From Escherichia coli (lineage in GTDB: Bacteria > Pseudomonadota > Gammaproteobacteria > Enterobacterales > Enterobacteriaceae), in assembly GCF_013122565.1 (NCBI RefSeq), contig NZ_CP053258.1: a DNA stretch of 64,000 bases. One strand, given 5' to 3'. The notes below the pieces were generated by a model. The model was not told the DNA's origin. It worked only from the letters and a program-made list of their open reading frames with translations, and ran no database searches. Positions 13,249 through 54,306 of the stretch are shown here, one piece after another; position 1 is the first letter of the stretch, and every line of letters begins with the position of its first letter. A program made the position numbers and the translations under genes.

Positions 13249-13303
13249 GGCGTTGATTAATTCAAATTAAACGAGAAGTAGATAAAAATTGTTATAAATA
13301 AAA

Positions 13304-13328
13304 AAGCACATTTCAATGTGCTTTTTTA
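13304..13328 (+). terminator. Rho-independent terminator downstream of selB
   Basis: Stem aagcacat (13304..13311) / atgtgctt (13316..13323), loop ttca, followed by T-run. Confidence 0.7.
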
Positions 13329-13419
13329 TTGCGAATGATTAAAAGAGTAATAGCGCTCATATTTTAAATTAAAATATTTTGTAAGCTTCGCGTCATTTTA
13401 TACTCGTTCAGGGTGTTTT

Positions 13420-13696
13420 ATGGCAGCCTCCATCTTTTTTATCCCTTCAGATAATGCCTTTGGCGTAGATTCTTTAAAAGATGCAATGAATATGATGATA
13501 TGGAATATGGCTTTCACCGTACATGGATGAACTGACGAAGAAAGTGGATATCCCGGCAGGCCTACGCGACCTGAACGTGAAAGAAGAAGATTTCGCGGTA
13601 CTGGCGACTAATGCCCTGAAAGATGCCTGTGGCTTTACTAACCCGATCCAGGCAACTCACGAAGAAATTGTGGCGATTTATCGCGCCGCAATGTAA
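13420..13696 (+). pseudogene. yiaY: Remnant of Fe-dependent alcohol dehydrogenase gene yiaY (N-terminal ~35 codons and C-terminal 56 codons, internal deletion with frame change)
   Basis: 13420..13530 encodes MAASIFFIPSDNAFGVDSLKDAMNMM...HG then stop; from 13526 in the +1 frame [56 protein letters not shown] to the stop at 13694..13696. Both ends resemble YiaY termini as I recall them; the ~300 central codons are missing. Confidence 0.7.
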
Positions 13697-13860
13697 TCAT
13701 CATTCCCACAACGGCTGGCAAATTGTCAGCCGCTTTTTCAACTATCTCTGTAATCCTTGCCCGTAAATTCGTGATAGCTGTCGTAAAGCTGTTACCGACT
13801 GGCGAAGATTTCGCCAGTCACGTCTACCCTTGTTATACCTCACACCGCAAGGAGACGATC

Positions 13861-15518: not shown

Positions 15519-15941
15519 AAAGCGCACGTTGTTACAATTTACGTTTTAAACCTACGTGCGCAATAACCCAGACTACGCCAACAGAAGTGCGTTTCTGGGG
15601 CGTGTTTTGTCAGGAGTTTAATCTCGCGTTTCGATGGTGAGCGGGCGAACCAGGCCGTAAATCACCATTGGCGTTCCGAGGCCAATCAGCAATAAACGGT
15701 AGATAATTGAAGGTTTAATACGCTTAATCTGTATTGTGGATGTTTTACTGGAGTTATTCATTAGTTTGGCCAATAGTTCTATTATTTCAATATGATAAGT
15801 CTCAGTCTGTTGAAAATCCACGCAGTACACTTCAGAAAGTATATAAAAAACAATATGTCGTTATATAAATAAGGAAATTGCACTGCATCATGGCATTTCA
15901 TAATATGCGTTAATTGTTTTTTTATATTCTTTGAGGAAAAT

Positions 15942-16265
15942 ATGTTCCTGGACTATTTTGCACTGGGAGTGCTTATTTTTGTATTTCTGGTGATATTCTA
16001 TGGGATTATTATTTTACATGATATTCCCTACCTGATTGCTAAAAAACGTAATCATCCACATGCCGACGCCATTCATGTTGCTGGTTGGGTGAGTCTTTTT
16101 ACGCTGCATGTTATCTGGCCATTTTTGTGGATTTGGGCCACGCTTTACCGCCCGGAGCGGGGATGGGGAATGCAAAACCATGACTCCTCCGTTGTGCAAC
16201 TACAACAGCGTATTGCCGGGCTGGAGAAACAGCTCGCTGACATCAAATCCTCTTCTGCCGAGTAA
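15942..16265 (+). CDS. yiaW: DUF3302 small inner-membrane protein YiaW (paralog of YibI)
   Basis: 107-aa [48 protein letters not shown]..., nearly identical N-terminus to the ORF at 7738. Confidence 0.85.
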
Positions 16266-16270
16266 TACTT

Positions 16271-17407
16271 ATGGATTTACTGATTATTTTGACCTATGTG
16301 GCTTTCGCATGGGCAATGTTTAAGATCTTCAAAATTCCTGTAAATAAATGGACCATTCCCACCGCGGCCCTGGGTGGAATATTTATTGTCAGCGGTTTAA
16401 TTCTGTTAATGAACTATAACCATCCGTATACCTTTAAAGCGCAAAAAGCGGTTATTTCTATTCCTGTTGTCCCACAGGTGACAGGCGTGGTGATCGAAGT
16501 GACGGATAAGAAAAATACGCTGATTAAAAAAGGTGAGGTGCTATTTCGACTGGACCCGACGCGTTATCAGGCGCGGGTGGATCGGCTGATGGCGGATATC
16601 GTTACCGCAGAACATAAACAGCGGGCGTTGGGCGCAGAGTTAGATGAGATGGCGGCGAATACTCAGCAGGCAAAGGCCACGCGGGATAAATTCGCTAAAG
16701 AGTATCAGCGTTACGCACGCGGCAGCCAGGCGAAAGTAAACCCGTTTTCAGAACGCGATATTGATGTGGCGCGGCAAAATTATCTGGCGCAGGAAGCCTC
16801 CGTAAAGTCATCGGCGGCGGAACAAAAACAGATCCAGAGCCAGCTGGATAGCCTGGTGTTGGGTGAACATTCTCAAATCGCCAGCCTGAAAGCGCAGCTC
16901 GCGGAAGCAAAATATAACCTTGAGCAGACGATAGTGCGTGCGCCGAGCGATGGTTATGTGACCCAGGTGCTGATTCGTCCGGGTACCTATGCCGCGTCGC
17001 TGCCGCTACGTCCGGTGATGGTGTTTATACCCGATCAGAAACGACAAATTGTGGCGCAGTTCCGTCAGAACTCCTTGCTGCGACTGGCTCCTGGCGACGA
17101 TGCGGAAGTGGTGTTTAATGCTCTGCCAGGTAAGGTATTCAGCGGTAAGCTGGCAGCCATTAGTCCAGCCGTTCCCGGCGGAGCTTATCAGTCGACCGGC
17201 ACCTTACAGACGTTAAACACAGCGCCGGGTTCAGATGGCGTTATCGCGACCATTGAACTGGATGAGCATACTGATTTGAGCGCATTACCAGACGGTATTT
17301 ACGCCCAGGTGGCGGTCTACTCTGATCATTTCAGCCATGTCTCGGTGATGCGCAAAGTACTGTTACGCATGACCAGCTGGGTGCATTACCTTTATCTCGA
17401 TCATTAA
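16271..17407 (+). CDS. yiaV: HlyD-family membrane-fusion-like protein YiaV (paralog of YibH)
   Basis: 378-aa [39 protein letters not shown]...; same length and architecture as the ORF at 8103. Confidence 0.85.
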
Positions 17408-18378
17408 TCTTCGCTTTCCGCCGCTTGTTCAGGCCGCAGTTGCTGCGACTGAGCAAGCTGGTGGCGAATTTCACGCAGCATTTCATCCAGCACATACTGG
17501 ACCCGCCAGGGCTGGTATTCCCGTTTACGGAAGATAGCCACCAGATCCAGCCACCATTCATACGGGTGCTGAAAGCAGGGCACCAGCGTGCCGTCTTGCA
17601 GGTCGCTCTGCACACTTTTGTCTGGCGCAAACACAATCCCCAGGTGATTTCGTGCCAGCTCCAGCGCAGATTGCGTGTTGTCGCAAACGTAATTTCCCTT
17701 CACGCGATAATCCCGCACATCTTTACTCCCGGCGACGTTGAAGCGCCAGATATTCGCGTCGTCGATCATCATCGAGTCGATCAAAATACAGGAGTGATGT
17801 TCGAGTTCGTCAGGACGGCTAATGGGATGTTTCGCAAGATAGCGCTGGCTGGCATAAGCGGTTACGGCATATTGTGTAATAAAACTGGCAACCAGCGATT
17901 CATCTTTTGGTGGGGCGTAGCTGATTAAAACATCACAATCATCGGGAAATTCGACGCCTTCATAAAAGGCATTACGCTCAAGATTGCAGGTTTTTAGCGA
18001 TAAGGTGATATCACCGATATCTTTAATTTTATCGATAACATGTTTGGATAAATAGGTAATTATGCCGGTTGGGGCGTAGATGGTGACCCGACCACGTTTC
18101 TCATGCTTATAATCTGCAATAAAATTATTAAGCTGCTCGTTTCTGTCCAGCATGTCGTTGATGTACGGTAATAGCGCGGTGCCAAAAGGTGTGAGCATCA
18201 GCTGCCGGGTGGTGCGGTCAAAGACTTTTAAACCCACTTTTGATTCAAAATCAGCAAGATATTTGCTGACGTTGGCCTGTGCGATGCCAAGTACAGTCGC
18301 GGCATGGCTGATATTTTCACTGGCAGCGATTACCGAGATAATTTTTAACTCCCGGTACTTAAGTTGTAATTTTGTCAT
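17404..18378 (-). CDS. yiaU: LysR-family transcriptional regulator YiaU
   Basis: 324-aa [48 protein letters not shown]... (N-terminal HTH); 4-nt convergent overlap with yiaV. Confidence 0.85.
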
Positions 18379-18500
18379 CGCAACAGCCCAATTATATATA
18401 ATTTTATATATTACTATATAAATATGAATCTTGCACCGGAGAAATTGTAAGCATTACTATGCCGACTCTTTTTATCTTATTTTAAAATGGAATACCGGAC

Positions 18501-19241
18501 ATGTTAATTAACCGCAATATTGTGGCGTTATTTGCGTTGCCTTTTATGGCAAGCGCAACTGCTTCTGAATTATCCATTGGTGCTGGTGCGGCTTATAATG
18601 AATCGCCTTATCGCGGTTATAATGAAAATACAAAGGCAATTCCGCTGATTAGTTATGAAGGTGATTCTTTTTATGTTCGTCAGACCACGTTAGGTTTTAT
18701 TCTGTCGCAAAGTGAAAAAAATGAACTTAGCCTGACCGCATCCTGGATGCCGCTGGAATTTGACCCTGCCGATAATGACGATTATGCCATGCAACAGCTT
18801 GATAAGCGTGATAGTACGGCTATGGCGGGGGTTGCCTGGTATCACCACGAGCGTTGGGGAACCGTGAAAGCCTCTGCGGCTGCGGACGTTCTGGATAACA
18901 GCAACGGCTGGGTGGGGGAGCTATCGGTTTTCCACAAAATGCAGATAGGTCACCTGTCGCTGACACCTGCGCTGGGCGTTATCTATTATGACGAGAATTT
19001 CAGTGACTATTACTATGGCATTTCAGAGAGTGAGTCCCGTCGTAGCGGTCTGGCAAGTTATTCCGCGCAGGATGCATGGGTGCCCTATGTCAGCCTGACG
19101 GCAAAATACCCGATAGGAGAGCACGTCGTATTGATGGCGAGCGCCGGATACAGCGAGCTGCCGGAAGAGATTACCGACAGCCCGATGATTGATCGTAATG
19201 AGAGTTTTACCTTTGTCACCGGCGTGAGCTGGCGTTTTTAA
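18501..19241 (+). CDS. yiaT: MipA/OmpV-family outer-membrane protein YiaT
   Basis: 246-aa ORF with signal peptide MLINRNIVALFALPFMASATASE and C-terminal ...SWRF beta-barrel terminus. Confidence 0.85.
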   Translation: MLINRNIVALFALPFMASATASELSIGAGAAYNESPYRGYNENTKAIPLISYEGDSFYVRQTTLGFILSQSEKNELSLTASWMPLEFDPADNDDYAMQQLDKRDSTAMAGVAWYHHERWGTVKASAAADVLDNSNGWVGELSVFHKMQIGHLSLTPALGVIYYDENFSDYYYGISESESRRSGLASYSAQDAWVPYVSLTAKYPIGEHVVLMASAGYSELPEEITDSPMIDRNESFTFVTGVSWRF

Positions 19242-19244
19242 TTC

Positions 19245-19375
19245 ACCGATGGATGTCGGTGCGGCTGGCCTACGCTCTCGCACCGACTCGTATGCCTGAT
19301 AAGACGTTTTAAGCGTCGCATTAGGCAATGTACTCCCTACGTTGGATGCGGCGCGAGCGCCTTATCCAACCTCCG
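19245..19375. repeat. REP elements between yiaT and the GH127 gene
   Basis: REP-type palindromes (gcctgataagacg...cgtcgcattaggc; ggatgcggcgcgagcgccttatcc); overlaps the 3' end of the GH127 ORF. Confidence 0.7.
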
Positions 19376-21341
19376 GATGGCGATGCTTTTCCTCATTCAC
19401 CCAGATCCGCATTTCACCTTCACCCCGGTTAGCCCAGCTAAACCACGGGATAAATGTCAGAGTTTGCGGCTGGCGTTTGGCTGGGGCATAGTCGTAATGC
19501 CACAACGGTTGTTGTTCTGGATTGCTCTGTTCATACCGGTAACCCGGTGCCTGGATTAAGATCTTATGGCTGAACAATCCCTTACCTTCAAATGTCGTAA
19601 ATGGCGCATCGGCGGGCAGCCACAGATTATGCAGTGACTCGCCGTTGTCAGCCTGTTCCAGGCAATACACCAGCGGGCCGCGCTGAATCGCCACTTTTCC
19701 GGCGACGTGACGCACCAGCGGGTTACCGTAAACGCGGCGTACCGGCATCGGCAAAGTCAGATTCAGCGTATCGCCCTCCTGCCATTCGCGGGTAATGTGC
19801 AAATACCCTTTACGAATATCCTGCTCGACCTCTTCCCCATTCAATATGATCTGCGGCTGTGTGCACCAGTCCGGCAGACGTAAAGCCAGCGTATGACGTA
19901 CCGGCTGGGGCGATTCAACCGCAATCGTCACCTGCTCCTGCCACGGATAGTTCCCGCTAACCCGCAGGCGCAGCGTGCCATTTTCTACCGGCACTTCCAT
20001 GCTGTTTCCTGCGTATATGTTGATATACAACGCATCTTCACGCGGCGTGTAGAGATAATGACCGATTGAGGTCAGCACGCGGGCGATATTTGGCGGACAA
20101 CAAGCGCAGCCAAACCAACGCTGGCGGATCGGCTTAATGTGATCGTAGATATGGTTGAATTTCAGCGATTTTGGATGTACTTCCAGCGGATTCACATAGA
20201 AGAAATGTTTGCCATCCAGCGCCATGCCGCCGAGCACAGTGTTGTACAGTGCGCGCTCCATCACATCGGCATATTGACTGTCGCCTTCCATTTCCAGCAT
20301 TCGTCGGGCGAACATCATCAGGCCGATGGAAGCACAGCTTTCGGCGTAAACCGTGTCATTCGGCAGATCGTAATCGCTGCTGAACGCTTCGCCGCTACTC
20401 TGTGAGCCAATGCCACCGGTAATATATAACTGACGCTGGGCCATATTGTTCCACAGCCGCAGGCAGTCCTGACGCTTGCTGTCATCGTGACTTAAACGCG
20501 CGAGATGCGCGACGCCGGTCATCAGGTAGACAAAACGTACCGCGTGACCGATGGCGGTTTGCTGTTGCGCAAGGGGCAAATGTGCCTGGCTGTAGGCTTT
20601 GTCTTTCACCATCCACGCCGGGCCGTAGGTGTGCCAGTGCGAGGTCTGCCCGCGCTTTTCATATTCCTGGTCGTAATAGTGCGGTTGCGCACCACGCTGT
20701 TCGACAAAATAGTTCGTCAATGCCAGGTAGCGCGGCTCTTCGGTCACTTCATACAGACGCATCAGTGCCAGTTCAATTTCCGGGTGACCAGGGTAACCGT
20801 GTAACTTACTTTCATCTGGACCAAATACGCTGTCGATATGATCGGCCAGACGGCAAACCACTTCCAGCAAGCGCCGCTTGCCCGTGGCCTGGAAGAAGGC
20901 GACTCCAGCTTCAATCAGATGACCGGCGCAGTAAAGTTCATGACACTCCGCCAGATTGCTCCAGCGTTCTTCGGGCGCTTTTACCGTAAAGTAAGTATTG
21001 AGATAGCCGTCTTCGCACTGGGCGGAGGCGATCAGTTCGATTACCTCGTCGGCGGTTTTTTCCAGTTCGGCGTCCGGCTTCTGGCACAGCGACCAGGCTA
21101 CCGCTTCCAGCCATTTGGCGACGTCGCTGTCCTGAAACACCATCCCGTAAAATTCACCCTCCTGAAGTCCGGCGGCAATGCGAAAGTTTTCAATCGCATG
21201 GCTGGGTTCCGCTTCTGGGATACGATCGTTCAAGGCATCCCACTGATAAGGAATCACCACGTCGCGGACCAGTTGTTGGTACTGACCGAGGAACGGATCG
21301 CTGACCGTCAGTTTATGCAGATCGACTTCCGAAATGTTCAT
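19362..21341 (-). CDS. Glycoside hydrolase family 127 (DUF1680; beta-L-arabinofuranosidase-like)
   Basis: ORF track 19362..21365; start trimmed to MNISEVD (ATG at 21341) because AAGGAG lies 6 nt upstream. Contains YAESCASIG and WFGCACCPPNIAR motifs, matching the Glu/Cys and Cys-Cys signatures I associate with GH127. Confidence 0.75.
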   Translation of the reverse strand: MNISEVDLHKLTVSDPFLGQYQQLVRDVVIPYQWDALNDRIPEAEPSHAIENFRIAAGLQEGEFYGMVFQDSDVAKWLEAVAWSLCQKPDAELEKTADEVIELIASAQCEDGYLNTYFTVKAPEERWSNLAECHELYCAGHLIEAGVAFFQATGKRRLLEVVCRLADHIDSVFGPDESKLHGYPGHPEIELALMRLYEVTEEPRYLALTNYFVEQRGAQPHYYDQEYEKRGQTSHWHTYGPAWMVKDKAYSQAHLPLAQQQTAIGHAVRFVYLMTGVAHLARLSHDDSKRQDCLRLWNNMAQRQLYITGGIGSQSSGEAFSSDYDLPNDTVYAESCASIGLMMFARRMLEMEGDSQYADVMERALYNTVLGGMALDGKHFFYVNPLEVHPKSLKFNHIYDHIKPIRQRWFGCACCPPNIARVLTSIGHYLYTPREDALYINIYAGNSMEVPVENGTLRLRVSGNYPWQEQVTIAVESPQPVRHTLALRLPDWCTQPQIILNGEEVEQDIRKGYLHITREWQEGDTLNLTLPMPVRRVYGNPLVRHVAGKVAIQRGPLVYCLEQADNGESLHNLWLPADAPFTTFEGKGLFSHKILIQAPGYRYEQSNPEQQPLWHYDYAPAKRQPQTLTFIPWFSWANRGEGEMRIWVNEEKHRHPEVG

Positions 21342-21351
21342 CTTGTGCTCC

Positions 21352-22752
21352 TTAAGGCTGTACATGACGCTGACGCAGGTCGGTAGCTATGCGTGACATC
21401 ATAGGATTATTGAGTTTGCAAAAGCGGATCGCCCCTGCCAGCAGCAGGTGAAATAGCGCAGGCAGTAATGTTTCCATCGCCGCGATCCCGCCAAGCGAAC
21501 TGGCGGTCTGGTTTTCCATGCCTGGCTGGTAGGCGACAAAAATAAACAGCAGGCTGATGATCCCGGCGCTGGAGGCCCAGGCCAGCTTGATGAAAAACAG
21601 ATTGAAGGCGAAGTTCATGCCGGAAGAACGTACGCGGGTTTTCCACTCGCCGTAGTCATCGGCAAAGGCCATCAATGAGAAGTGCAGTGGCAATGTGAAG
21701 CCAAGAATTACGCCATTACCGAGGATCACCGCCAGCCACAGCGTTTGATAAGCCGGGCCGGAGGGCAGGAACCACATCAACACCGCCAGCGCAGCGAGGA
21801 GCAGGTTGGTGTAGTAGTAAATTTTGACGGTATCGAAACGCCGCGTTAACGGGCTGACAATCACCGAGCCGATAATGGAGGCGAAGGTGACCATGGTGAA
21901 GAACAGCGACGTGTAGCCCGTACTGCCTTGTAAGACGTAGGTAATGAAGTACATATACCCACCGCCGCGAATATTAAAGACGTTAATCAGCAGGAAAGAC
22001 ATGACCAGCATCAGCAGCAGTTGGTCGTTGTTCCGCAGCCCGGCAAGATGTTCGCGCAGGGTAAATTTCCCCATTGTGGAGAGCGGCACCCGTTCACGAA
22101 CCCAGAAAAAACAGCACAGGAACATCACCACGGCAATGGCGCACAATACGCCGACGCCCAGTTGATAGCCGCGTGCAGCGTTGCCCTGACCGAAGAGATC
22201 TACCATCCACGGTAAGCCTACCGAAACCAGAAATCCCGCTACGCCGCAGAGAACGAATCGCCAGGACTGGCAGGAGATCACTTCATTGTGGCGGGTGGTC
22301 ATGGTGTTGATCAGCGCGCAGTACGGTACGTTGATGGCGGTATAACCGACTGAAAGGAGCAGGTAAGTACCGAACGCCCAGGCGATTTTTACTCCCATGC
22401 TGGCATCTGGCACGGTGAACGTCAGGATGCCGATAATGCCGATGGGAATGGCAATCCATAGCTGCCACGGACGAAAGCGCCCCCAGCGACTTTGCGTCCG
22501 GTCGGCAATGACGCCCATCACCGGGTCGGAGATGGCATCAAACACGCGCAGTGCAATAAACAGCGTGCCAACCAGCGCCGGAGTTAATCCAAAAACGTCG
22601 GTGTAGAAAAAGGTGAGAAAATTCATGATCAGGCAAGTTATTACGGTGCCGCCTGCGTCACCCAGGCCGTAGCCTATTTTTTCCCGTACAGATAACGCAT
22701 CGTCAATTTTACCTTTAGCGATATCAGCGGTAGTAATCGGTGTAGAGGTCAT
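21352..22752 (-). CDS. MFS transporter, glycoside-pentoside-hexuronide (GPH):cation symporter family
   Basis: 466-aa ORF; N-terminal [10 protein letters not shown]...[20 protein letters not shown] motif typical of MelB/UidB-type symporters; about 12 TM segments; stop overlaps the SD of the downstream hydrolase. Confidence 0.8.
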
Positions 22753-22884
22753 AGATATTCCTCGTGAATAGGGAGCAATTTTTAGTTTTATTGCAATGAC
22801 CTGATTAATTCTGCCGTGAACGGGAATATCAACAAGGCGAGAAAAGAGTAAAAAAAGGTGACGATTCCGACCTGTATTTAAAAG

Positions 22885-22900
22885 TGTGAAATGGATCAGG
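22885..22900. promoter_or_regulatory. CRP-like half-consensus site in divergent promoter region between GPH transporter and AraC regulator
   Basis: tgtgaaatggatcagg (TGTGA-N6-TCAGG) in an AT-rich intergenic region; weaker than the mtl sites. Confidence 0.35.
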
Positions 22901-22977
22901 TGAAATTAATGTTTTTGATTAATAATCAAAAGGTAATGTGTTTAATCCTTAATAAATAAGCGGGAAATTACATATCA

Positions 22978-23793
22978 ATGCTCGAATTATCCATGACGTT
23001 ACCGATTAAAGTGCAAAATGGTGGATTATTTATTTCCCGTGGCGTAGGGAGGCATCCGGCAAGGCGGCTGGAGTCATGGGAAATTATCTTTGTCGAAAAA
23101 GGTCGATTAACGATTCAGGAAGAAGAACGGATATTTCTGGTCGATGCGGGAGAGAGTTTATTACTCTGGCCGAACCGACAGCATGTTGGGGTGGAGGATT
23201 TTCCCGCCGATCTCAAATTTTACTGGCTGCATTTTGAGGTTAAAGCGCCGGACAACGACCCTCGCTGGCTTACTCATCTTAGCGTGCCGCAACAAACGAA
23301 GGTTGCCGATCCGCAGGCGCTGGTGGCCCTGTTTCGCCAGTTCTTAAGCGAACAGGAAAAGCATCAACGCACTCCGGCGCTGGAGTTTATTGTGCTGCTC
23401 ATTTTGCAGCAGCTCACCCGTGACGCGCGTCTTGATGAACAGGCCGATGGCGCAGGCACCACCCTTGCCTGGAAGGCGCAGAAACTGATTCGCACGCAAT
23501 ATCACCGCCCGCTTTCCACGGCGCTTCTGGCCCGCGAGCTGTACTGCAATGCCGATTATCTTGGGCGTGTCTATCGGCGAGTGTTTCATCTGACGCTTAC
23601 AGAAGCAATCCACCGCCAGCGGGTGCGCGAAGCCGAAAAGCTGTTAATTAGCGAAGCTCGATCGCTCACGGAAGTGGCGGCGTTGTGCGGGTTTAATGAC
23701 GTTGGCTATTTCCGGCAGATTTTTCGCAAGCACACCGGTTTAACGCCAGCAGCGTGGAAGCGGCGTTACAGCAAGGAACATATCAATTCGTAG
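22978..23793 (+). CDS. AraC/XylS-family transcriptional regulator
   Basis: 271-aa ORF (true start may be M6 at 22993); N-terminal cupin-like effector domain, C-terminal double HTH (...LTEVAALCGFNDVGYFRQIFRKHTGLTPAAWKRR); divergent from the transporter-hydrolase pair. Confidence 0.8.
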   Translation: MLELSMTLPIKVQNGGLFISRGVGRHPARRLESWEIIFVEKGRLTIQEEERIFLVDAGESLLLWPNRQHVGVEDFPADLKFYWLHFEVKAPDNDPRWLTHLSVPQQTKVADPQALVALFRQFLSEQEKHQRTPALEFIVLLILQQLTRDARLDEQADGAGTTLAWKAQKLIRTQYHRPLSTALLARELYCNADYLGRVYRRVFHLTLTEAIHRQRVREAEKLLISEARSLTEVAALCGFNDVGYFRQIFRKHTGLTPAAWKRRYSKEHINS

Positions 23794-23794
23794 T

Positions 23795-23816
23795 GCCGGG
23801 GCGATGAAGCCCCGGC
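23795..23816. terminator. GC-rich hairpin between convergent AraC-regulator gene and sgbE
   Basis: Stem gccgggg (23795..23801) / ccccggc (23810..23816), 8-nt loop; no clear U-tract, so terminator function is tentative. Confidence 0.4.
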
Positions 23817-23824
23817 GTGAGGGA

Positions 23825-24520
23825 TTACTGCCCGTAATAGGCATTGTCTCCATGCTTACGCAGGTAGTGCTTATCCAGCAGTTCGTTTTGCATGGCAGGG
23901 AGCTGCGGCGCAAGCTGGCGCGAGAACAGGCCCATATAGGCGCACTCTTCCAGCACCACGGCGTTATGCACCGCATCGGCGGCGTTTTTTCCCCAGGCGA
24001 ACGGGCCGTGAGAATGTACCAGTACCGCAGGGATTTGTGCCGGGTTCAGCCCACGCTCTTCGAAGGTTTCAATGATCACTTCGCCGGTCTGGTATTCATA
24101 CTCGCCGTTGATCTCCTCTGCGGTCATCAGGCGCGTGCAGGGGATGGCACCATAGAAATAATCGGCGTGCGTGGTGCCCCAGGCGGGGAGATCCAGCCCG
24201 GCCTGCGACCAGATGGTAGCGTGGCGCGAGTGGGTATGCACAATGCCACCGATTTCGGCATAGCGACGGTAAAGTGCCAGATGCGTTGGCGTATCGGAAG
24301 AGGGCTTTTTGCTACCTTCCACCACCTTGCCGCTGGCTAACTCAACCACCACCATATCGTCGGCGGTCATCACGTCATACTCGACACCGGAAGGTTTAAT
24401 CACCATCCATTGCCGCGTTTCGTCTACCGCGCTGACATTGCCCCAGGTAAACGTCACCAGATGTTGAGCGGGAAGCGCCAGGTTAGCCGCCAGCACGTCG
24501 TTTTTCAGTTGCTCTAACAT
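23825..24520 (-). CDS. sgbE: L-ribulose-5-phosphate 4-epimerase
   Basis: 231-aa [49 protein letters not shown]... (class II aldolase/AraD fold). Confidence 0.9.
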
Positions 24521-25374
24521 ATAAAACCTGCCTCCTGCATACGCGCTTCAATCCAGCGCCGCGCCTGAATGATCTCCAGCACCGGCTCTTTGGCTTTTTC
24601 GGTCCACATCTCAATCAGGAAAGAACCGCGATAGTTCAGTTCATGCAGCGTTTTGAAGATGCCAACGAAATCGACGCAGCCTTCGCCAAACGGCACATCA
24701 CGGAACTGTCCGGGGCTTTGTTCGGTCACTGGCTGGGTGTCTTTCAGGTGGATCGCGGCGATACGGTCAATGCCCAGTTTCAGTTCGGCGGGAACATCAT
24801 TGCCCCAGGCGCTGAGGTTGCCGACGTCCGGGTAGACGGTGAACCACGGCGAGGCGAGCATCTCGTCCCACTTTTTCCATTTACTGATGGAGTTCATAAA
24901 CGCGGTATCCATAATCTCCACCGCCAGCATTACTTGTGATGCCGCCGCCTGTTCGACCGCCCACGCCAGCCCTTCAGCAAAACGTTGTTGGGTGCCTTCG
25001 TCGTGGTCTTCGTAATAGACGTCATAACCTGCCAGTTGAATGGTGCGAATGCCGAGATCGCGCGCCAGGCGAATTGCTTTACTCATGATCTCCCGCGCCC
25101 GTTCGCGCACCGCTTCGTCCCGGCTGCCAAAAGGAAAACGACGGTGGGCAGACAGGCACATTGACGGAATGGCAACACCCGTTTCGATCATCGCAGTGAC
25201 CAGCGAAGCACGTTGTGCGGCGCTCCAGTCAAGACGTGAGAGCCGTTCGTCGGTTTCATCCACCGACATTTCGACAAAATCAAAGCCACAGCTTTTTGCC
25301 AGCACCAGCCGCTCCGGCCAGGAGAGATCTTTCGCCAGCGCTTTTTCATAAATCCCTAACGGATGATTACGCAC
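24514..25374 (-). CDS. sgbU: L-xylulose-5-phosphate 3-epimerase
   Basis: ORF track 24514..25464; start trimmed to [23 protein letters not shown] (286 aa, TIM-barrel sugar isomerase-like). Confidence 0.85.
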
Positions 25375-26029
25375 GCGCACCTCCCCAGATGGCATCAATT
25401 TGTGCATGGAAATCGCCAGCCACCTGCACCGGATTTGCTGCGCCTGCCAGTGCTCGCCCGGCAATAAACGCTTTCACGCGAATATCTTTAAACAGCGGCA
25501 GGTCAGCAGGGGTAATCCCGCCGGTAATGGAAAGCTCAAGGCCGATATCGGAAAGCGCCTTCATGCGTGCCAGATCGGCCTCGCCCCACTGTTGCCCGCT
25601 GGCCTGTGCATCACGACCGCGATGATAAATGGCCTGCCGCACGCCAATACGATGCCAGTCGCGGGCGTCGTCCAGCGTCCAGTTACCGAACAGCTCTATC
25701 TGAATTTCACCCCCGCAGCGTTGCGCCATTGCGTGGCCTTTTTCTACCGTCGCGAGCGGCGCGGCGCAGATGATGGTCATCCAGTTAGCGCCTGCGCCAA
25801 ACGCCTGTTGCGCGAGCGTTTCACCAGCGTCGGCGACCTTCCAGTCAGCAACGATGATTTTGTCCGGGCACTGTTCGCGCAAGGCTTTCACCGCGCCAAG
25901 CCCTTCGTTTAAACAGAGAATGGTGCCCGCTTCGACGATATCGACGCTGTCTTTTAACAGCGTCACGTCGCGCTGTGCGTCTTCAAGTGATGAGTGGTCG
26001 AGGGCCAGTTGCAGAAGTGGTCGGCTCAT
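25367..26029 (-). CDS. sgbH: 3-keto-L-gulonate-6-phosphate decarboxylase
   Basis: 220-aa [39 protein letters not shown]... (OMP-decarboxylase-like). Confidence 0.9.
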
Positions 26030-27522
26030 AATGTGTGCTCCTTGATGCGGGCGTGATAACCCTGAAGTGCGGCAATGAAATGCTGATAGCGTTGGTATTT
26101 TTGTTGGTAAAGCTGATGGGCGGTCATATCCGGCAGCAGGGTGCGTACCGGGTGCTGTAAATCACGTTGGGCTTCGCTGAAATCGCGATAAACTCCGGTG
26201 CCGACGCGGGCGGCAAGTGCTGCACCAAAGCAGCCGGTTTCTTCCACCTGCGGCAGCTCGATACGCAGACCGCTGACGTCCGCCAGCATTTGCATCCAGA
26301 CATCGGAATGCGCCGGGCCGCCAGTGACGCGCAGGGTGTGCACATCAGTAAAACGTTCGCGCATCCGGTTGAGATGGGTCATATGGCTGAACACCACGCC
26401 TTCATAAATGGCCTGCAACAGGTGTGCGCGGGTGTGAATGGCCTGCATCCCGTAGAAACCGCTGGTCATCTCGAGTCCGGCGTTGCTGCCGTACAGGAAC
26501 GGCAGGAAAAAGAGGTCGCCCCCGGCCTTCGGCAAGCTGGCTACGGCCTGGTTAATCTCATCAAACGAGATTTCTCCCCACTGTGCGGTAAACCATTCGA
26601 GGTTGCCGGAAGAGGTGGGGCTGGCTTCGTGAACGATAAATTGACCATCGTTAACGTAGCGACCATAGACATACGGATGCGCTTCACCGTCACGTAAACC
26701 GCGGGTTATGCCGCTGGTCACCGCCCAGGTGCCCATCACCGCATTAAGGGTAAATTCGTCTTCGATCCCGGCACAGAGTGCGGTGGAAACCACATCAAAC
26801 AGGCCGCCGACAACGGGCGTACCCGCTTTCAGACCGGTCAGTGCGGCTGTCTGAGCGGTGATTTCCCCGCAGATTTCGGCAGATCCCACAACCGGCGGCA
26901 GGGCGTGGTTGATTTCAGCGATCCCCAGCCAGTCGGTGAGACACGGGTCATATTTCCCGCGACTCATGTTGTAGAGATTGGACTCGGAAATATTGCTCTC
27001 TTCACAGCCTTTGACGCCAGTTAAACACCAGCGCAGGTAGTCGTGCGTCATCATCACGCAGCCAATTTGCGTGTAGCGTTCCGGTTCGTGCTCTTTCAGC
27101 CAGCGTAACAGCGACACCGGATGCCCGGTCCACAAGGTTTGTCGGGTCAGCGGGTAGAGTTTTTCCGGGATGCCATCTTCCTGCCAGCGGCGAACGATTT
27201 CCATCGCCCGGCGATCCGAGGACAAAATGGCGTTACCGAGCGGCTTGTTGTTTTTATCCAGCAAAAACAAGCCTTTTCCTTGTGCGGAGATACCGATACC
27301 CACTATTTGCTCCCCGCTAACGCCGGAATGGGTAAGCAGGGCGCGAATGACAGCCATGCAGCATTGCCACAGTTCTGCCATATCGCGCTCTGCCCAGCCT
27401 GGCTGCGGGCTTAATGCGCACAGCGGCAGGCGCTGCACGCCTGCCTCCCGGCCTTCGCGGTCATACAGCCCGGCTTTCAGCCAGCTACCGCCACAATCTA
27501 ACCCCAGCCAGTATTGCGTCAT
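26026..27522 (-). CDS. lyxK: L-xylulose/3-keto-L-gulonate kinase
   Basis: 498-aa ORF MTQYWLGLDCGGSWLKAGLYDREGREAG... (FGGY carbohydrate kinase). Confidence 0.9.
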   Translation of the reverse strand: MTQYWLGLDCGGSWLKAGLYDREGREAGVQRLPLCALSPQPGWAERDMAELWQCCMAVIRALLTHSGVSGEQIVGIGISAQGKGLFLLDKNNKPLGNAILSSDRRAMEIVRRWQEDGIPEKLYPLTRQTLWTGHPVSLLRWLKEHEPERYTQIGCVMMTHDYLRWCLTGVKGCEESNISESNLYNMSRGKYDPCLTDWLGIAEINHALPPVVGSAEICGEITAQTAALTGLKAGTPVVGGLFDVVSTALCAGIEDEFTLNAVMGTWAVTSGITRGLRDGEAHPYVYGRYVNDGQFIVHEASPTSSGNLEWFTAQWGEISFDEINQAVASLPKAGGDLFFLPFLYGSNAGLEMTSGFYGMQAIHTRAHLLQAIYEGVVFSHMTHLNRMRERFTDVHTLRVTGGPAHSDVWMQMLADVSGLRIELPQVEETGCFGAALAARVGTGVYRDFSEAQRDLQHPVRTLLPDMTAHQLYQQKYQRYQHFIAALQGYHARIKEHTL

Positions 27523-27525
27523 GGT

Positions 27526-28512
27526 TTATTGCACCTCATCCACGGCTTTCAGCAGATCAGCGCCCTGCGGCACATCTTTAACAAACATGTCGCGAACCTG
27601 ATTCCCCAGCGCGTCGCTAAAGGCTTTGCGGTCGAGATCGGTGATGACTTCCACGCCCGCTTCTTTCATGCCGTCGATGATTTTTTGCTGATCTTCGGCA
27701 ACCAGTTTGCGCTGGTAGTTACCCGCTTCCTGCGCAGATGAAATTAGCGCTTGCTGGAACTCCGGGCTTAAGCCATCAAACTTCGCTTTGTTGATCACCA
27801 CCAGAAGTGGCGAATAGGCGTGGTGCGTCAGAGAAAGGTACTTCTGTACTTCGAAAAATTTTGCTGACCAGACGACGTTGATCGGGTGTTCCTGAGCGTC
27901 GATAGTGCGCGTTTCCAGCCCGGTATAGACTTCGGCAAACGGCATCGGGATTGGGTTAGCGCCAAAGACTTTGAATGCTGCGATATTCATCGGACTATTG
28001 TTGGTGCGGATTTTCAGCCCTTTCAGGTCGGCGGGGGTTTTAACCGGTGCGCGCGAGTTGGTGACATCGCGCCAGCCGTTTTCCCAGTAGGCCAGTACTT
28101 TTAGTCCTTTACCTTCAAGTGAGGCTTTCAGATCATCACCGACTTTGCCGTCGAGCGTTTTATGCGCGTGAGCGGTATCGCGGAACAGGAAAGGGACATC
28201 AAGCAAGTTCATCACTGGTGATAACCCGGCAAAGTTATTCGAGCCGGACATTTCCATATCGATGGTGCCGCCACGTACGCCGCTGATCATCGCCTGCGCG
28301 TTACCGAGAGTGCTGTCCGGGAACAGTTTTAATTTCAGCTCGCCTTTGGTTCTCTCCTGCAATAAATCATTGAATTTTTTCGCCGCAATATGTTGCGAGT
28401 CGGTTTGTGAGGTTTCATAACCGAAACGTAAAGATTGCGCCGCCAGTGAAGGTGTACTGAATGCAGCCAGGCCAGCAATGAATAATGCGTAGGTTACAGA
28501 GCGTAATTTCAT
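27526..28512 (-). CDS. yiaO: TRAP transporter periplasmic solute-binding protein (2,3-diketo-L-gulonate)
   Basis: 328-aa ORF with signal peptide MKLRSVTYALFIAGLAAFSTPSLA; DctP family. Confidence 0.9.
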   Translation of the reverse strand: MKLRSVTYALFIAGLAAFSTPSLAAQSLRFGYETSQTDSQHIAAKKFNDLLQERTKGELKLKLFPDSTLGNAQAMISGVRGGTIDMEMSGSNNFAGLSPVMNLLDVPFLFRDTAHAHKTLDGKVGDDLKASLEGKGLKVLAYWENGWRDVTNSRAPVKTPADLKGLKIRTNNSPMNIAAFKVFGANPIPMPFAEVYTGLETRTIDAQEHPINVVWSAKFFEVQKYLSLTHHAYSPLLVVINKAKFDGLSPEFQQALISSAQEAGNYQRKLVAEDQQKIIDGMKEAGVEVITDLDRKAFSDALGNQVRDMFVKDVPQGADLLKAVDEVQ

Positions 28513-28524
28513 AATATTTTCCTT

Positions 28525-29802
28525 TTAATTAATCCATTTCAAAGGGAGGATGATGAGATCGGGAATAAAAATAAATACGACTAATAATGAATATAAAACC
28601 AGGACGTAAGGGAAAACGCCTCTGACTGCATCATCGAATTTGAGTTTTGCCACCCCTGAAATAACGTTAAGCACATTACCGATAGGCGGTGTAATTAAGC
28701 CGATTGAGCAGTTAATGATAAACATGACACCGAAATAAATCGGATCGATTCCTGCCTCTTTAACTAAAGGCATTAATACCGGGGTAAGAATTAATACCGT
28801 CGGCGTTAAATCCATGACCATGCCGACAATCAGGATAGCCACCATAATGACGATAAACAGCAGACGCGGTGAATCGACTAGCGGTTGCAGTAAATCAGAA
28901 ACCATCATCGGCAGTTCAGCAATGGTGATCAGCCAGGCGGAAACTTGTGCCGAGGCCACCAGAAACATCACCACTGAGGTCGTTTTCGCTGCGCCAATGA
29001 GCACATGCCAAAGTGTGGCGAAGGTCATTTCACGGTAAATAACTGTGGCGACAAACAACGCATAGAAAGCAGCAACGGCCCCGGCTTCGGTAGGGGTAAA
29101 CAGACCGGAGCGAAAACCCCCAATAATGATGACCGGAAGAAACAGCGCCCAGATACCGGAGACAAAAGAGTGCCAGATTTCCTGCATCGTCGCTTTTTGC
29201 TGGCGGGGTAAGTTAAGACGACTGGCCTGCCACCACCAGGTAAGCATCAGCGTTGCGCCCATCATCATGCCAGGGGCAATGCCCGCCATAAACAGCTTAC
29301 TGATGGATAATCCGCTGGAAACGCCGAAGATAATAAACGGAATGGAAGGGGGAATAATTGGCGCGATAATGCCGCCAGAGGCAATCAGCCCCGCAGCCCG
29401 GTTGACCGGGTAGTTGGCGCTGCGCATCATCGGCACCAGTAGTGCGGCAACGGCGGCGGTATCCGCAACGGCAGAACCAGAAAGGCTCGCCATAATCATA
29501 GCCGCCAGCACGCCGACGTAGCCCAGCCCGCCTGGTTTATGCCCCACCAGTTTCATCGGCAGGTCAACAATGCGTTTTGACAAGCCGCCCGCATTCATGA
29601 TTTCACCCGCCAGCACAAAGAACGGAATCGCCAGCAGGGAGAAACTGTCGGCTCCGTTCACCAGCGTTTGTGCCATGATCTGGACATCAAACATCTCCAG
29701 CCAGAACATCAACGCTGCGCCGCATAACAAAAGTGCCCAGGCAATAGGCAAACCGATAGCAATGCCACCTAACAGGCAGCCCAGAAAAATCAGCACAGCC
29801 AT
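28525..29802 (-). CDS. yiaN: TRAP transporter large permease
   Basis: 425-aa polytopic membrane ORF, DctM family. Confidence 0.9.
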   Translation of the reverse strand: MAVLIFLGCLLGGIAIGLPIAWALLLCGAALMFWLEMFDVQIMAQTLVNGADSFSLLAIPFFVLAGEIMNAGGLSKRIVDLPMKLVGHKPGGLGYVGVLAAMIMASLSGSAVADTAAVAALLVPMMRSANYPVNRAAGLIASGGIIAPIIPPSIPFIIFGVSSGLSISKLFMAGIAPGMMMGATLMLTWWWQASRLNLPRQQKATMQEIWHSFVSGIWALFLPVIIIGGFRSGLFTPTEAGAVAAFYALFVATVIYREMTFATLWHVLIGAAKTTSVVMFLVASAQVSAWLITIAELPMMVSDLLQPLVDSPRLLFIVIMVAILIVGMVMDLTPTVLILTPVLMPLVKEAGIDPIYFGVMFIINCSIGLITPPIGNVLNVISGVAKLKFDDAVRGVFPYVLVLYSLLVVFIFIPDLIILPLKWIN

Positions 29803-29804
29803 GA

Positions 29805-30278
29805 TTAAGCTCCTTGCGGTGGCGGCGTTAGAGAATTGCTACGCGTGATGAGTTGATATAAATGACGCAGTTCAAAGAATGCGATAACGAGGCTGGTGGG
29901 CAGACAAGCGGCATACATCAGGCCGATGGGCAAACCGAGGATCGGTGAATAATCGCTCCAGTCCTGAATTGTTTTTAGCGTTGCGCCCCAGGCCAGTGCG
30001 CCACAAATAAATAAGATTAAGGAATGGGTAACCAGAGCGACTCGTCGCTGCCATGCGGGGGAGAGTTTCTCCACCAGAAAGGTGACCTGAACGTGGGCGT
30101 TATCCATAAAAGCCACAATCGCGCCAATAAATGTTAACCAGACAAATAAATAACGCGACAATTCATCTACAGATAAAATACTTGTTTGAAAACCATATCT
30201 TAAAATAATGTTTATAAACACAATACAGGAAAGTACGGCGAGATTAATCGCCAGTATTGCTTCAAGTATTTTTTTCAT
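29805..30278 (-). CDS. yiaM: TRAP transporter small permease
   Basis: 157-aa ORF with 4 TM segments, DctQ family. Confidence 0.9.
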
Positions 30279-30395
30279 AGCTATTCCTTGAGGCTATGTT
30301 TGTCATAATTCAAGTTGCATGTGCAGCAACCTGAATTATTAATATGGTTAGAGTAATAACATTACCCTGGCGTTCTGGCGTAGACGATTATTTGA

Positions 30396-30866
<471 letters not shown>

Positions 30867-30874
30867 TTATCTCC

Positions 30875-31873
30875 TTATAACGCCTGGATTTTGGCCCACA
30901 CGCTGTCATCAACGGTAATACCGTTACGGCGGTTTTCGGCCAGCAGGGTAGTAAATTCGTGGCCGGGTAAGCGGATGGCCTGGTTTTCGTCAGCGCGTTC
31001 AGCGGTAGTAACGTAATCCATGATACGTTGCAGCTTGGCATCGCGGGTGGGACCGTCGATAAGCTTATCTACTTCAATGGCAATAAAAATTTGTGAAATG
31101 CCGTATTCGTCGCTGTTGTCCTGGGTGACTTCGGCAACCGATGCGCCGTCGGAAAGGAGAGTAGCGATCATATCCAGCACAATCGACATGCCAGAACCTT
31201 TCCAGTAGCCCATCGGCAAAATGCGGCGATTCTTCTCGATAACGCCAGGTTCTTTGGTCAAATTGCCCTCATCATCAAAGCCACCATCGACCGGGAGCTG
31301 ACGACCTGCCAGACGGTTAACTTCTAACATGCCGTAAGAGAACATCGACATCGACATATCGACCATGGTGATCGGCGTGGAAGGAATGGCGACGATCAGC
31401 GGGTTAGTGCCGATGCGACACTCTTTTGCGCCCCACGGCGGCATTACGGCGATGGAGTTGGTCCAGCAAATGCCAATATAGCCTTTTTCCGCCGCCTGCC
31501 AGCCGTAGCTGCCGCCGCGCATCCAGTGGTTGGCATTACGAAGTGCCACCAGACCAATACCGTGATCGGCAGCCAGTTCAATGGCGCGATCCATCATCTT
31601 TTTCGCCGTCAGGTTGCCGATCGAACGCTGGGCATCCCACTGTTCAATTGCGCCGAGGCTGGTTATACGTTTGGGTTGGGCATCAGGAATGATATCGCCG
31701 TTTTCCAGTTGTTGAATGAAACGAGGGAAACGATTAACGCCGTGAGAATAAACGCCGGATTCGGTGGTGCGGGCGAACATCTCTGCACAGGCGTCAGCCG
31801 TTTCGCTGTCAACGCCGCGTGAAATTAAGACCCGATTAAAGGCTGCTTTTAACTGCTCAAATGTCACTTTCAT
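30875..31873 (-). CDS. yiaK: 2,3-diketo-L-gulonate reductase
   Basis: 332-aa [52 protein letters not shown]... (Ldh_2 family). Confidence 0.9.
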
Positions 31874-32073
31874 CCCAGGCTTCCTTGTTTTTTTGATCGC
31901 TTTTTTGGCTTAAAATTTCAATATGCGAAACTTGATTTCAAATATATCGATCACTTTTTAACAAAGCAATCTGATTGATGAATTTCAAAAGACATAAAAA
32001 TCAAGTGGTTATAAATTATCTGTCGAGATCGTGAACTACGGCACACTTTGCGCTACCATCAGGACGCGACAAA

Positions 32074-52894: not shown

Positions 52895-53416
52895 ATGTCA
52901 AAGCCAAAATACCCTTTTGAAAAGCGCCTTGAAGTCGTGAATCACTACTTCACTACTGATGATGGTTACAGGATCATCTCGGCACGTTTTGGTGTCCCCC
53001 GAACCCAGGTCAGGACATGGGTTGCCCTCTATGAAAAACATGGAGAAAAAGGTTTAATTCCCAAACCTAAAGGTGTTAGTGCTGATCCAGAGTTGCGTAT
53101 TAAGGTCGTGAAAGCTGTGATCGAGCAGCACATGTCCCTTAATCAGGCTGCTGCTCACTTTATGCTTGCTGGTAGTGGTTCTGTAGCCAGGTGGCTGAAG
53201 GTTTATGAAGAGCGCGGAGAAGCTGGTTTACGCGCGCTCAAGATTGGCACCAAAAGAAACATTGCAATATCAGTTGATCCAGAAAAAGCGGCATCAGCAT
53301 TGGAGCTGTCAAAAGACCGACGCATTGAGGATCTTGAAAGGCAAGTTCGATTTCTTGAAACGCGGCTTGTGTATCTAAAAAAGCTGAAAGCCTTAGCTCA
53401 TCCCACGAAAAAGTGA
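52895..53416 (+). CDS. insJ: IS150 OrfA (HTH DNA-binding protein)
   Basis: 173-aa ORF MSKPKYPFEKRLEVVNHYFTTDDGYRIISARFGVPRTQVRTWVALYEKHGEKGL... Confidence 0.95.
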   Translation: MSKPKYPFEKRLEVVNHYFTTDDGYRIISARFGVPRTQVRTWVALYEKHGEKGLIPKPKGVSADPELRIKVVKAVIEQHMSLNQAAAHFMLAGSGSVARWLKVYEERGEAGLRALKIGTKRNIAISVDPEKAASALELSKDRRIEDLERQVRFLETRLVYLKKLKALAHPTKK

Positions 53417-54264
53417 AAGTACTCAACGAGCTAAGGCAGTTTTATCCTCTTGATGAGCTTCTCAGGGCTGCGGAGATACCGCGCAGTACGTTTTATTACC
53501 ATCTAAAGGCTCTCAGCAAGCCTGACAAGTATGCGGACGTTAAAAAGCGTATTGGTGAGATTTATCATGAGAATAGAGGCCGATACGGATACCGTAGGGT
53601 AACGCTGTCTCTTCATCGAGAAGGGAAACAGATTAACCATAAAGCTGTTCAGCGCCTGATGGGAACCCTCTCACTTAAGGCAGCGATTAAGGTCAAGCGA
53701 TACCGCTCTTACAGAGGAGAGGTAGGGCAAACCGCCCCCAATGTTCTCCAAAGAGATTTCAAGGCTACGCGGCCAAACGAGAAGTGGGTTACCGATGTTA
53801 CTGAATTTGCAGTCAATGGGCGCAAGCTGTATTTGTCTCCAGTAATAGATCTCTTCAACAATGAAGTTATTTCTTACAGCCTTTCGGAAAGACCTGTGAT
53901 GAACATGGTTGAGAATATGCTCGATCAGGCATTCAAAAAGCTTAATCCTCACGAGCATCCTGTTCTGCACTCTGACCAGGGATGGCAGTATCGTATGAGA
54001 AGATATCAAAATATCCTTAAAGAACATGGTATTAAACAAAGCATGTCCAGAAAAGGCAATTGTCTGGATAATGCTGTGGTGGAGTGTTTCTTTGGAACCT
54101 TAAAGTCGGAGTGTTTTTATCTTGATGAGTTCAGTAATATAAGCGAACTGAAGGATGCTGTTACGGAATATATTGAATACTACAACAGAAGAAGAATTAG
54201 CCTGAAATTAAAAGGTCTGACTCCAATTGAATATCGGAATCAGACCTATATGCCTCGTGTTTAA
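53413..54264 (+). CDS. insK: IS150 OrfB (DDE integrase/transposase catalytic domain)
   Basis: 283-aa ORF overlapping insJ; DDE region (WVTDVTEF..., HSDQGWQY...); OrfAB fusion expected by -1 frameshift at the heptamer. Confidence 0.95.
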
Positions 54265-54306
54265 CTGTCCAACTTTTTGGGGTCAGTACAAAGTGAGGCT
54301 GCCTCT

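Follow-up and report, generated by a model that had tools for sequence, protein, structure and literature searches.

Bifidobacterium longum takes up β-Ara2 (β-1,2-arabinobiose) that has been released from extensin glycans, and its intracellular enzyme HypBA1 then cleaves the sugar (PMC7263609). Roles have been assigned to the catalytic, zinc and substrate residues of this enzyme, and a lid loop A lies over its active site (PMC10850190). In Escherichia coli, the melAB operon encodes a cytoplasmic glycosidase and a GPH symporter, and is accompanied by the divergent AraC-family regulator gene melR. The gene for Ara127N of Geobacillus stearothermophilus T6 (PDB 4qjy, 4qk0) belongs to a large cluster for the use of L-arabinan, which also includes ABC transporter genes and araDBA. 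Here we describe a unit of three genes, encoding an AraC/XylS-family regulator, a GPH-family cation symporter and a glycoside hydrolase of family 127 (GH127), at positions 19362..23793 of a 64,000-nucleotide stretch of E. coli DNA (the window; NCBI RefSeq assembly GCF_013122565.1, contig NZ_CP053258.1). A preliminary description of this DNA had presented the unit as an uncharacterised glycoside-utilisation module inserted beside the sgb/yia L-pentose operon. The evidence below indicates that it is probably a self-contained operon for a small β-L-arabinofuranoside, chromosomal and ancestral in enterobacteria.

The unit resembles the B. longum system in two respects: its GH127 cysteine glycosidase, likewise predicted to be intracellular, has the catalytic and zinc-binding residues of HypBA1 unchanged, and the substrate is predicted to be imported before it is hydrolysed in the cytoplasm to L-arabinose. 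It differs in having a single GPH cation symporter where B. longum has an ABC importer, in its AraC-type regulator and in the lid loop A of its hydrolase, which is 12 residues shorter. Whereas B. longum has an upstream GH121 enzyme, HypBA2, the enterobacterial unit has no extracellular GH121 or GH43 partner nearby. The hydrolase shows no lid-loop gap relative to Ara127N, but the unit stands alone with three genes, in contrast to the large Geobacillus cluster. With melR/melAB it shares a divergent AraC-family regulator and an operon for a cytoplasmic glycosidase and a GPH symporter; however, the gene order is reversed, with the transporter first, and MelA is a GH4 α-galactosidase, a member of another family with another substrate. 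Finally, ysaC and ysaD of E. coli K-12 are non-functional fragments left from the same unit, whose intact ancestral genes are present in the window.

Identities of the hydrolase, transporter and regulator

The hydrolase gene (19362..21341, minus strand) encodes 659 amino acids. The open reading frames found for the unit were 19362..21365 and 21352..22752 on the minus strand and 22978..23793 on the plus strand. Within the first, translation was taken to start at ATG 21341..21339; RefSeq uses the identical start in E. coli PapM-32-1, and the N-terminus M-N/S-I/V-x-E-V/A-D-L-H-K-L is kept in a comparison across genera. Profile search detected PF07944 at residues 12-427 (catalytic, E = 2.9e-112), PF20736 at 438-532 and PF20737 at 534-649, giving the three-domain GH127 architecture of an (α/α)6 catalytic domain and two β-sandwich domains. 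The assignment to GH127 in the preliminary description, made from the motifs ESCASIG and WFGCACCPPN, was thus confirmed, and both motifs were found in the protein.

The closest solved relative of the hydrolase was Geobacillus Ara127N (4qjy; 781 bits, E = 8.5e-234, residues 11-650), followed by HypBA1 (3wkw; 511 bits, E = 5.9e-152). Both PDB depositions are β-L-arabinofuranosidases, and they are the top two structural relatives by a large margin. Alignment to HypBA1 demonstrated that the acid/base E318 (HypBA1 E322), the nucleophile C414 (C417) and the Cys3-Glu zinc site formed by E334, C336, C414 and C415 (E338, C340, C417 and C418) are kept, as are the sugar-binding residues H134, Y137, H186 and R269 (H142, Y145, H194 and R273) and H266 (H270). 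All of the -1 subsite residues of HypBA1 are present. No signal peptide was found at the N-terminus. The hydrolase is predicted to be a cytoplasmic β-L-arabinofuranosidase (EC 3.2.1.185).

GH127 also includes aceric-acid hydrolase and 3,6-anhydro-D-galactosidases, and because the family is polyspecific, its name does not settle the substrate. The same architecture could serve another compound, such as a furanoside, an anhydro-sugar or an aryl or alkyl plant glycoside, and yield a product other than L-arabinose. We regard this alternative as rather unlikely. The hydrolase does score against the NCBIfam aceric-acid hydrolase model NF049879 (457 bits) and against PDB 6ex6 (386 bits), but the former value is far under the model cut-off of 950, and identity as an aceric acid hydrolase was rejected on this basis. 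Twelve residues of HypBA1 lid loop A are absent near hydrolase residues ~40-45 (window ~21205-21225), so specificity may be wider than, or different from, that of HypBA1; the same residues are absent in Ara127N. Arabinose genes linked to the unit were found in none of the genera examined, a point in favor of this alternative. Conversely, the intact -1 subsite and the common activity of the two best structural relatives argue for a β-L-arabinofuranoside.

The transporter gene (21352..22752, minus strand) encodes 466 amino acids matching TIGR00792 and MFS_2 (E = 8.6e-73 for the latter). For TIGR00792 "gph" the score was 331 bits (cut-off 231) over residues 25-462, consistent with a full-length member of the GPH family (TC 2.A.2), as had been proposed from its N-terminal signature. 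MelB is the best solved relative (E ~3e-37 against MelB structures). Of the MelB cation-site residues, D55, D59 and T121 are kept (D72, D76 and T138 in the transporter), and S75 stands in place of N58. These helix II and IV residues are compatible with cation coupling; a choice between Na+ and H+ on the basis of the MelB alignment was rejected. Identities as YagG (354 bits vs a cut-off of 610), the YicJ-type PRK11462 (323 vs 836), MelB (205 vs 456) or the glucuronide transporter UidB (191 vs 528) were rejected. Since it falls under all four cut-offs, the transporter forms a separate GPH orthologue group.

The regulator gene (22978..23793, plus strand) is divergent from the other two and encodes 271 amino acids. 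HTH_18 was matched at residues 184-263 (E = 4e-19) and AraC_binding at 26-132 (E = 2.7e-9), corresponding to a C-terminal double helix-turn-helix and an N-terminal cupin-type ligand domain, as in the sugar-responsive subgroup. These matches place the protein in the AraC/XylS family, in agreement with the preliminary description. With 61 bits against NF007860 (cut-off 208), it is distinct from AraC, the regulator of the arabinose operon, and the name "Arabinose operon regulatory protein" in the source annotation is a transferred label. The match to the MelR model was also weak (38.6 bits vs 253).

Conserved position in enterobacteria and loss from K-12

The distribution of the unit was surveyed with each species represented by a single genome, and 80 related loci from these representatives were compared. 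The hydrolase was found at 77-97% identity in ~70 species of Enterobacteriaceae and Erwiniaceae, and the order and orientation of the divergent regulator and the GPH-GH127 pair were identical in 67 of the 80 loci. When flanking open reading frames were clustered and mapped to the window, the common neighborhood was selA-selB-(yiaY)-aldB-(yiaW-V-U-T)-unit-(yiaJ..sgbE operon)-ysaA-avtA-malS-bax. Of the 80 loci, 22 had sgbE and 16 had ysaA directly next to the unit on one side; 20 had yiaT on the other, with aldB or selB flanking the remainder. Since the neighborhood from selA to bax is constant, the three-gene unit is the stable resident, and the sgb operon and yiaT-W are its variable neighbors.

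The composition of the unit (GC content 0.53-0.55, GC3 0.57-0.67) is like that of its flanks, and no integrase or transposase reading frames were found at the unit. Synonymous divergence (dS) from Citrobacter and Salmonella was ~1-2, resembling that of sgbE. Ratios of nonsynonymous to synonymous divergence (dN/dS) were 0.03-0.13 over all three genes (hydrolase, 0.04-0.05; transporter, 0.03-0.12; regulator, 0.05-0.13), demonstrating strong purifying selection. The native composition, the absence of mobility genes and the shared site in ~70 species argue against a horizontally acquired genomic island. Collectively, these data provide good support for the conclusion that the unit is chromosomal and ancestral to enterobacteria.

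The E. coli survey covered 5426 complete genomes, queried with window positions 19000-24200 (5.2 kb). At least 80% of the query was present in 2311 genomes, and a K-12-type scar was present in 2461. To set the limits of the K-12 deletion, the K-12 locus was aligned to the window by blastn and the junction sequences were read. K-12 lacks a first segment of 210 bp (19269..19478), with the 9-bp direct repeat TGCGGCTGG on either side, and a second of 4021 bp (19669..23689). What is left comprises ysaD (b4649), a 190-bp internal hydrolase fragment with 89.5% identity, and ysaC (b4648), the 3'-terminal 102 bp of the regulator gene; both are listed as pseudogenes in the curated MG1655 annotation, and no other gene lies between sgbE and yiaT in K-12. 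The earlier statement that yiaT and sgbE are adjacent in K-12 therefore holds as regards intact genes, but overlooks the two remnants between them. Thus, the K-12 locus is a two-step deletion scar and not an empty site, and the unit was lost in K-12, not gained here.

These findings bear on the proposal that the unit is a horizontally acquired module beside sgb/yia that feeds L-arabinose-derived intermediates to SgbE, which we now consider very improbable. SgbE is annotated as an L-ribulose-5-phosphate 4-epimerase and its gene does adjoin the unit in those 22 species representatives, but the unit holds its position with or without the sgb operon. Genomes of the O157:H7 type keep the unit and lack yiaJ..sgbE, so that a fragment of yiaJ lies directly next to the regulator gene (locus L002 and one O157:H7 strain); Escherichia whittamii has no sgbE beside it, and ysaA takes that place in 16 representatives. 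The independent loss of the unit and of the sgb operon argues against functional coupling between them. The regulator gene and sgbE are moreover convergent and separated by a hairpin, and thus are not co-transcribed. Insertion had been suggested by the lack of the unit in K-12. Given the same slot in ~70 species, native composition and remnants of the unit at this very position in K-12, this part of the preliminary description was not upheld.

A comparison over window positions 15900-32000 that took in loci L001, L002, L003, L083 and L085 distinguished at least five Escherichia alleles, namely intact, K-12 scar, O157:H7-type, UPEC129 and 7_33_80A. In UPEC129, yiaW through the regulator gene is deleted and aldB abuts sgbE; in strain 7_33_80A, a deletion runs from inside yiaT into sgbH. 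The stretch from yiaW to yiaJ is thus a deletion hotspot. With at least four independent deletion alleles at the locus, and with the full-length unit absent from more than half of complete genomes, the E. coli unit might be a cryptic, decaying remnant that is now functionless and heading to loss. We find this improbable, since the open reading frames are intact with dN/dS of 0.03-0.12 within Escherichia, the non-coding control region is conserved, and the annotated coding sequences are intact in every unit-carrying genome among the matches listed.

Several other observations were made at these loci. In Bradyrhizobium spp. (eight loci, L073-L079 and L082), GH127 proteins 70-72% identical to the enterobacterial hydrolase are encoded among unrelated genes and have neither a GPH nor an AraC partner, which suggests an old transfer between distant phyla. 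Enterobacteriaceae MGYG-HGUT-00110 carries, in addition to its unit (L030), a second GPH-GH127 pair (L081) that is ~70% identical and has no adjacent AraC-type gene; it may be a paralogous unit of different specificity. One locus titled Chryseobacterium sp. 18061 (L025) has Citrobacter-like synteny and is almost identical to that of Citrobacter sp. 18056 (L024), and is probably a mislabelled or contaminated assembly. In the Pantoea and Bradyrhizobium loci off the usual synteny, the neighbors (among them genes for sensor kinases, a peptidase and a diguanylate cyclase, bcp, and perM-like genes) were unrelated and hence gave no functional hint.

Within the window, identity to K-12 is 98.3% on the yiaT side (18401-19268) and 93.7% on the sgbE side (23690-24636), which points to divergence or recombination of the sgb allele carried here. 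Between selB and aldB (13249-13860), only ~220 bp match yiaY, at its 3' end, and the DNA downstream of it, most of yiaY being missing; a Fic-family gene found between selB and aldB in UPEC129 and strain 105 is missing from the window. In the xyl-glyS part, an IS150-family (IS3-like) transposase reading frame lies at ~53400-54300; IS150 is annotated there too in the E. coli genomes that match best.

Operon junction, boundaries and control region

The transporter and hydrolase genes are separated by 10 nt, and a gap of ~10-17 nt is kept in most related loci. As read from the sequence, the transporter stop overlaps the hydrolase ribosome-binding site on the minus strand (21348..21354), with TAA at 21354..21352 and AAGGAG at 21353..21348, 6 nt before the hydrolase ATG. 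The tight junction noted in the preliminary description is therefore real.

The palindromic boundaries reported there were also recovered. On the left, a pair of palindromes of the repetitive extragenic palindromic (REP) type (19293..19371; inverted repeat I1) matched Rfam RF02564, naRNA4 ("Nucleoid-associated noncoding RNA 4"), with 55.5 bits (E = 4e-8), narrowly missing the gathering score of 59.5. Nowhere in the window was a strict REP consensus pattern matched. The naRNA4 family is presumably derived from a REP element, and the match together with the palindromes argues for the REP nature of the segment. An additional hairpin lies at 19255..19287. The right REP palindrome supplies the last codons and stop of the hydrolase gene (19362-19377). 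The C-terminal tail of the hydrolase is 5-8 residues longer in Escherichia (full length 656-659 amino acids) than in other genera (651 in Citrobacter) and varies among E. coli strains. On the right, where the regulator gene and sgbE converge, a GC-rich hairpin (23795..23816) separates them; it has an 8-bp stem and a folding energy of -20.8 kcal/mol on the plus strand and -19.9 on the minus strand, with no U-run on either strand; it persists in the K-12 scar.

The divergent regulatory region (22753..22977; 225 bp, 32% GC) was examined by phylogenetic footprinting of 67 loci and the window, with conservation also scored across 14 diverse genera. The most conserved non-coding block, ACAGGTCGGAATCGTCACCTTTTTTTACTC (22846..22875, minus strand), is near-invariant over these genera. 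A second conserved block, CGGCAGAATTAATCAGGTCA (22797..22816, minus strand), shares with it a C-R-GAAT-N2-3-TCA motif, the two being 56 bp apart. Both blocks are candidate sites for the AraC-type regulator, the second being promoter-proximal. A shorter block was conserved at 22828..22838. The palindrome TTTTGATTAATAATCAAAA (22913..22931), 47-65 bp upstream of the regulator start, is conserved in some genera only.

A candidate CRP site lies at 22885..22900 on the minus strand (CCTGA-TCCATT-TCACA). Its assignment is inferred by comparison with the consensus TGTGA-N6-TCACA, of which the right half is perfect and the left half degenerate. Conservation of GATC...TCACA(C)TTT was seen across nearly all genera in the footprint.

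Proposed function and its significance

The most likely mechanism is one modelled on B. longum HypBA1 and E. coli melR/melAB. A small β-L-Araf glycoside, most plausibly β-1,2-L-arabinobiose or a compound of comparable size, would be freed by other microbes from plant extensins, arabinogalactan proteins or arabinan. Other degraders, or plant tissue, are the expected source because no extracellular enzyme is linked to the unit in enterobacteria. The AraC-family protein would sense the substrate or the product and, with CRP, would activate the transporter-hydrolase operon in response to substrate and cAMP; the GPH symporter would import the glycoside with a cation, and the hydrolase, a zinc-dependent cysteine glycosidase, would cleave it in the cytoplasm to L-arabinose. 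L-Arabinose is catabolized via araBAD, which is located elsewhere, and the product would enter this unlinked pathway. The identities of the substrate, the inducer and the ion are proposals, as are the direction of regulation, the involvement of CRP and cross-feeding.

A number of findings weigh against the proposed β-L-arabinofuranoside operon. To the polyspecificity of GH127 and the shortened lid loop A is added the absence of the MelB sugar-binding, melibiose-specific residues D19 and D124 from the transporter, though this is uninformative as to the real substrate. A consensus sigma-70 scan of 22753..22977 found no promoter, and manual placement of -10 and -35 elements on the footprint yielded no canonically spaced arrangement, so no promoter was placed; lack of a consensus promoter is expected where promoters depend on an activator. 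The CRP-like site lies at ~-53.5 from the sole -10-like hexamer, a position of no canonical class. Repeated loss of the unit in E. coli indicates that it is dispensable in many niches. Finally, no biochemical or genetic study of activity, transport or induction in an enterobacterial member was found in the literature searched, from which subscription journals were mostly absent.

Searches for literature on ysaC, ysaD, DUF1680 or enterobacterial GH127 likewise returned nothing relevant. The main text of papers on enterohaemorrhagic E. coli (EHEC) transcriptomes gave no match to the guessed, possibly wrong locus tags Z4999-Z5002 and ECs4456-4459. The only mention of E. coli found was a statistical association of GH127 with invasive isolates from inflammatory bowel disease (IBD), with function inferred from HypBA1 (PMC11879602). 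The view that the unit is uncharacterised in E. coli is therefore correct as to experimental study. However, RefSeq and UniProt name the proteins "glycoside hydrolase family 127 protein" (WP_171460157.1 for the hydrolase in the window), "MFS transporter" and "AraC family transcriptional regulator", and because all three carry family names, the phrase "uncharacterised module" overstates the novelty. At present the unit is a correctly annotated orthologue set of predicted function, and the chief correction is evolutionary, namely its loss from K-12.

Beyond the single operon, we tentatively hypothesize a wider role, which we hold to be possible but not probable. A dedicated single-permease route for scavenging β-L-arabinofuranosyl oligosaccharides, which primary degraders such as bifidobacteria release from plant hydroxyproline-rich glycoproteins or arabinans, may be present in most Enterobacteriaceae, among them EHEC O157:H7 and ~43% of the E. 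coli sequenced. On plants or in the fiber-fed gut such a route could add to fitness, and it could underlie the association of GH127 with invasive IBD isolates. If this hypothesis is correct, the route was overlooked because K-12 deleted the unit, and a nutrient pathway for plant-derived β-L-arabinofuranosides that is common in E. coli and other enterobacteria would be absent from the catalogue of E. coli metabolism, which is based on K-12. It would also have bearing on gut cross-feeding and on the survival of EHEC on produce, and would place a simple GPH-type importer for β-L-arabinofuranosides beside the bifidobacterial ABC system. The interest of the locus thus lies in a widespread ancestral enterobacterial pathway that K-12 has lost.

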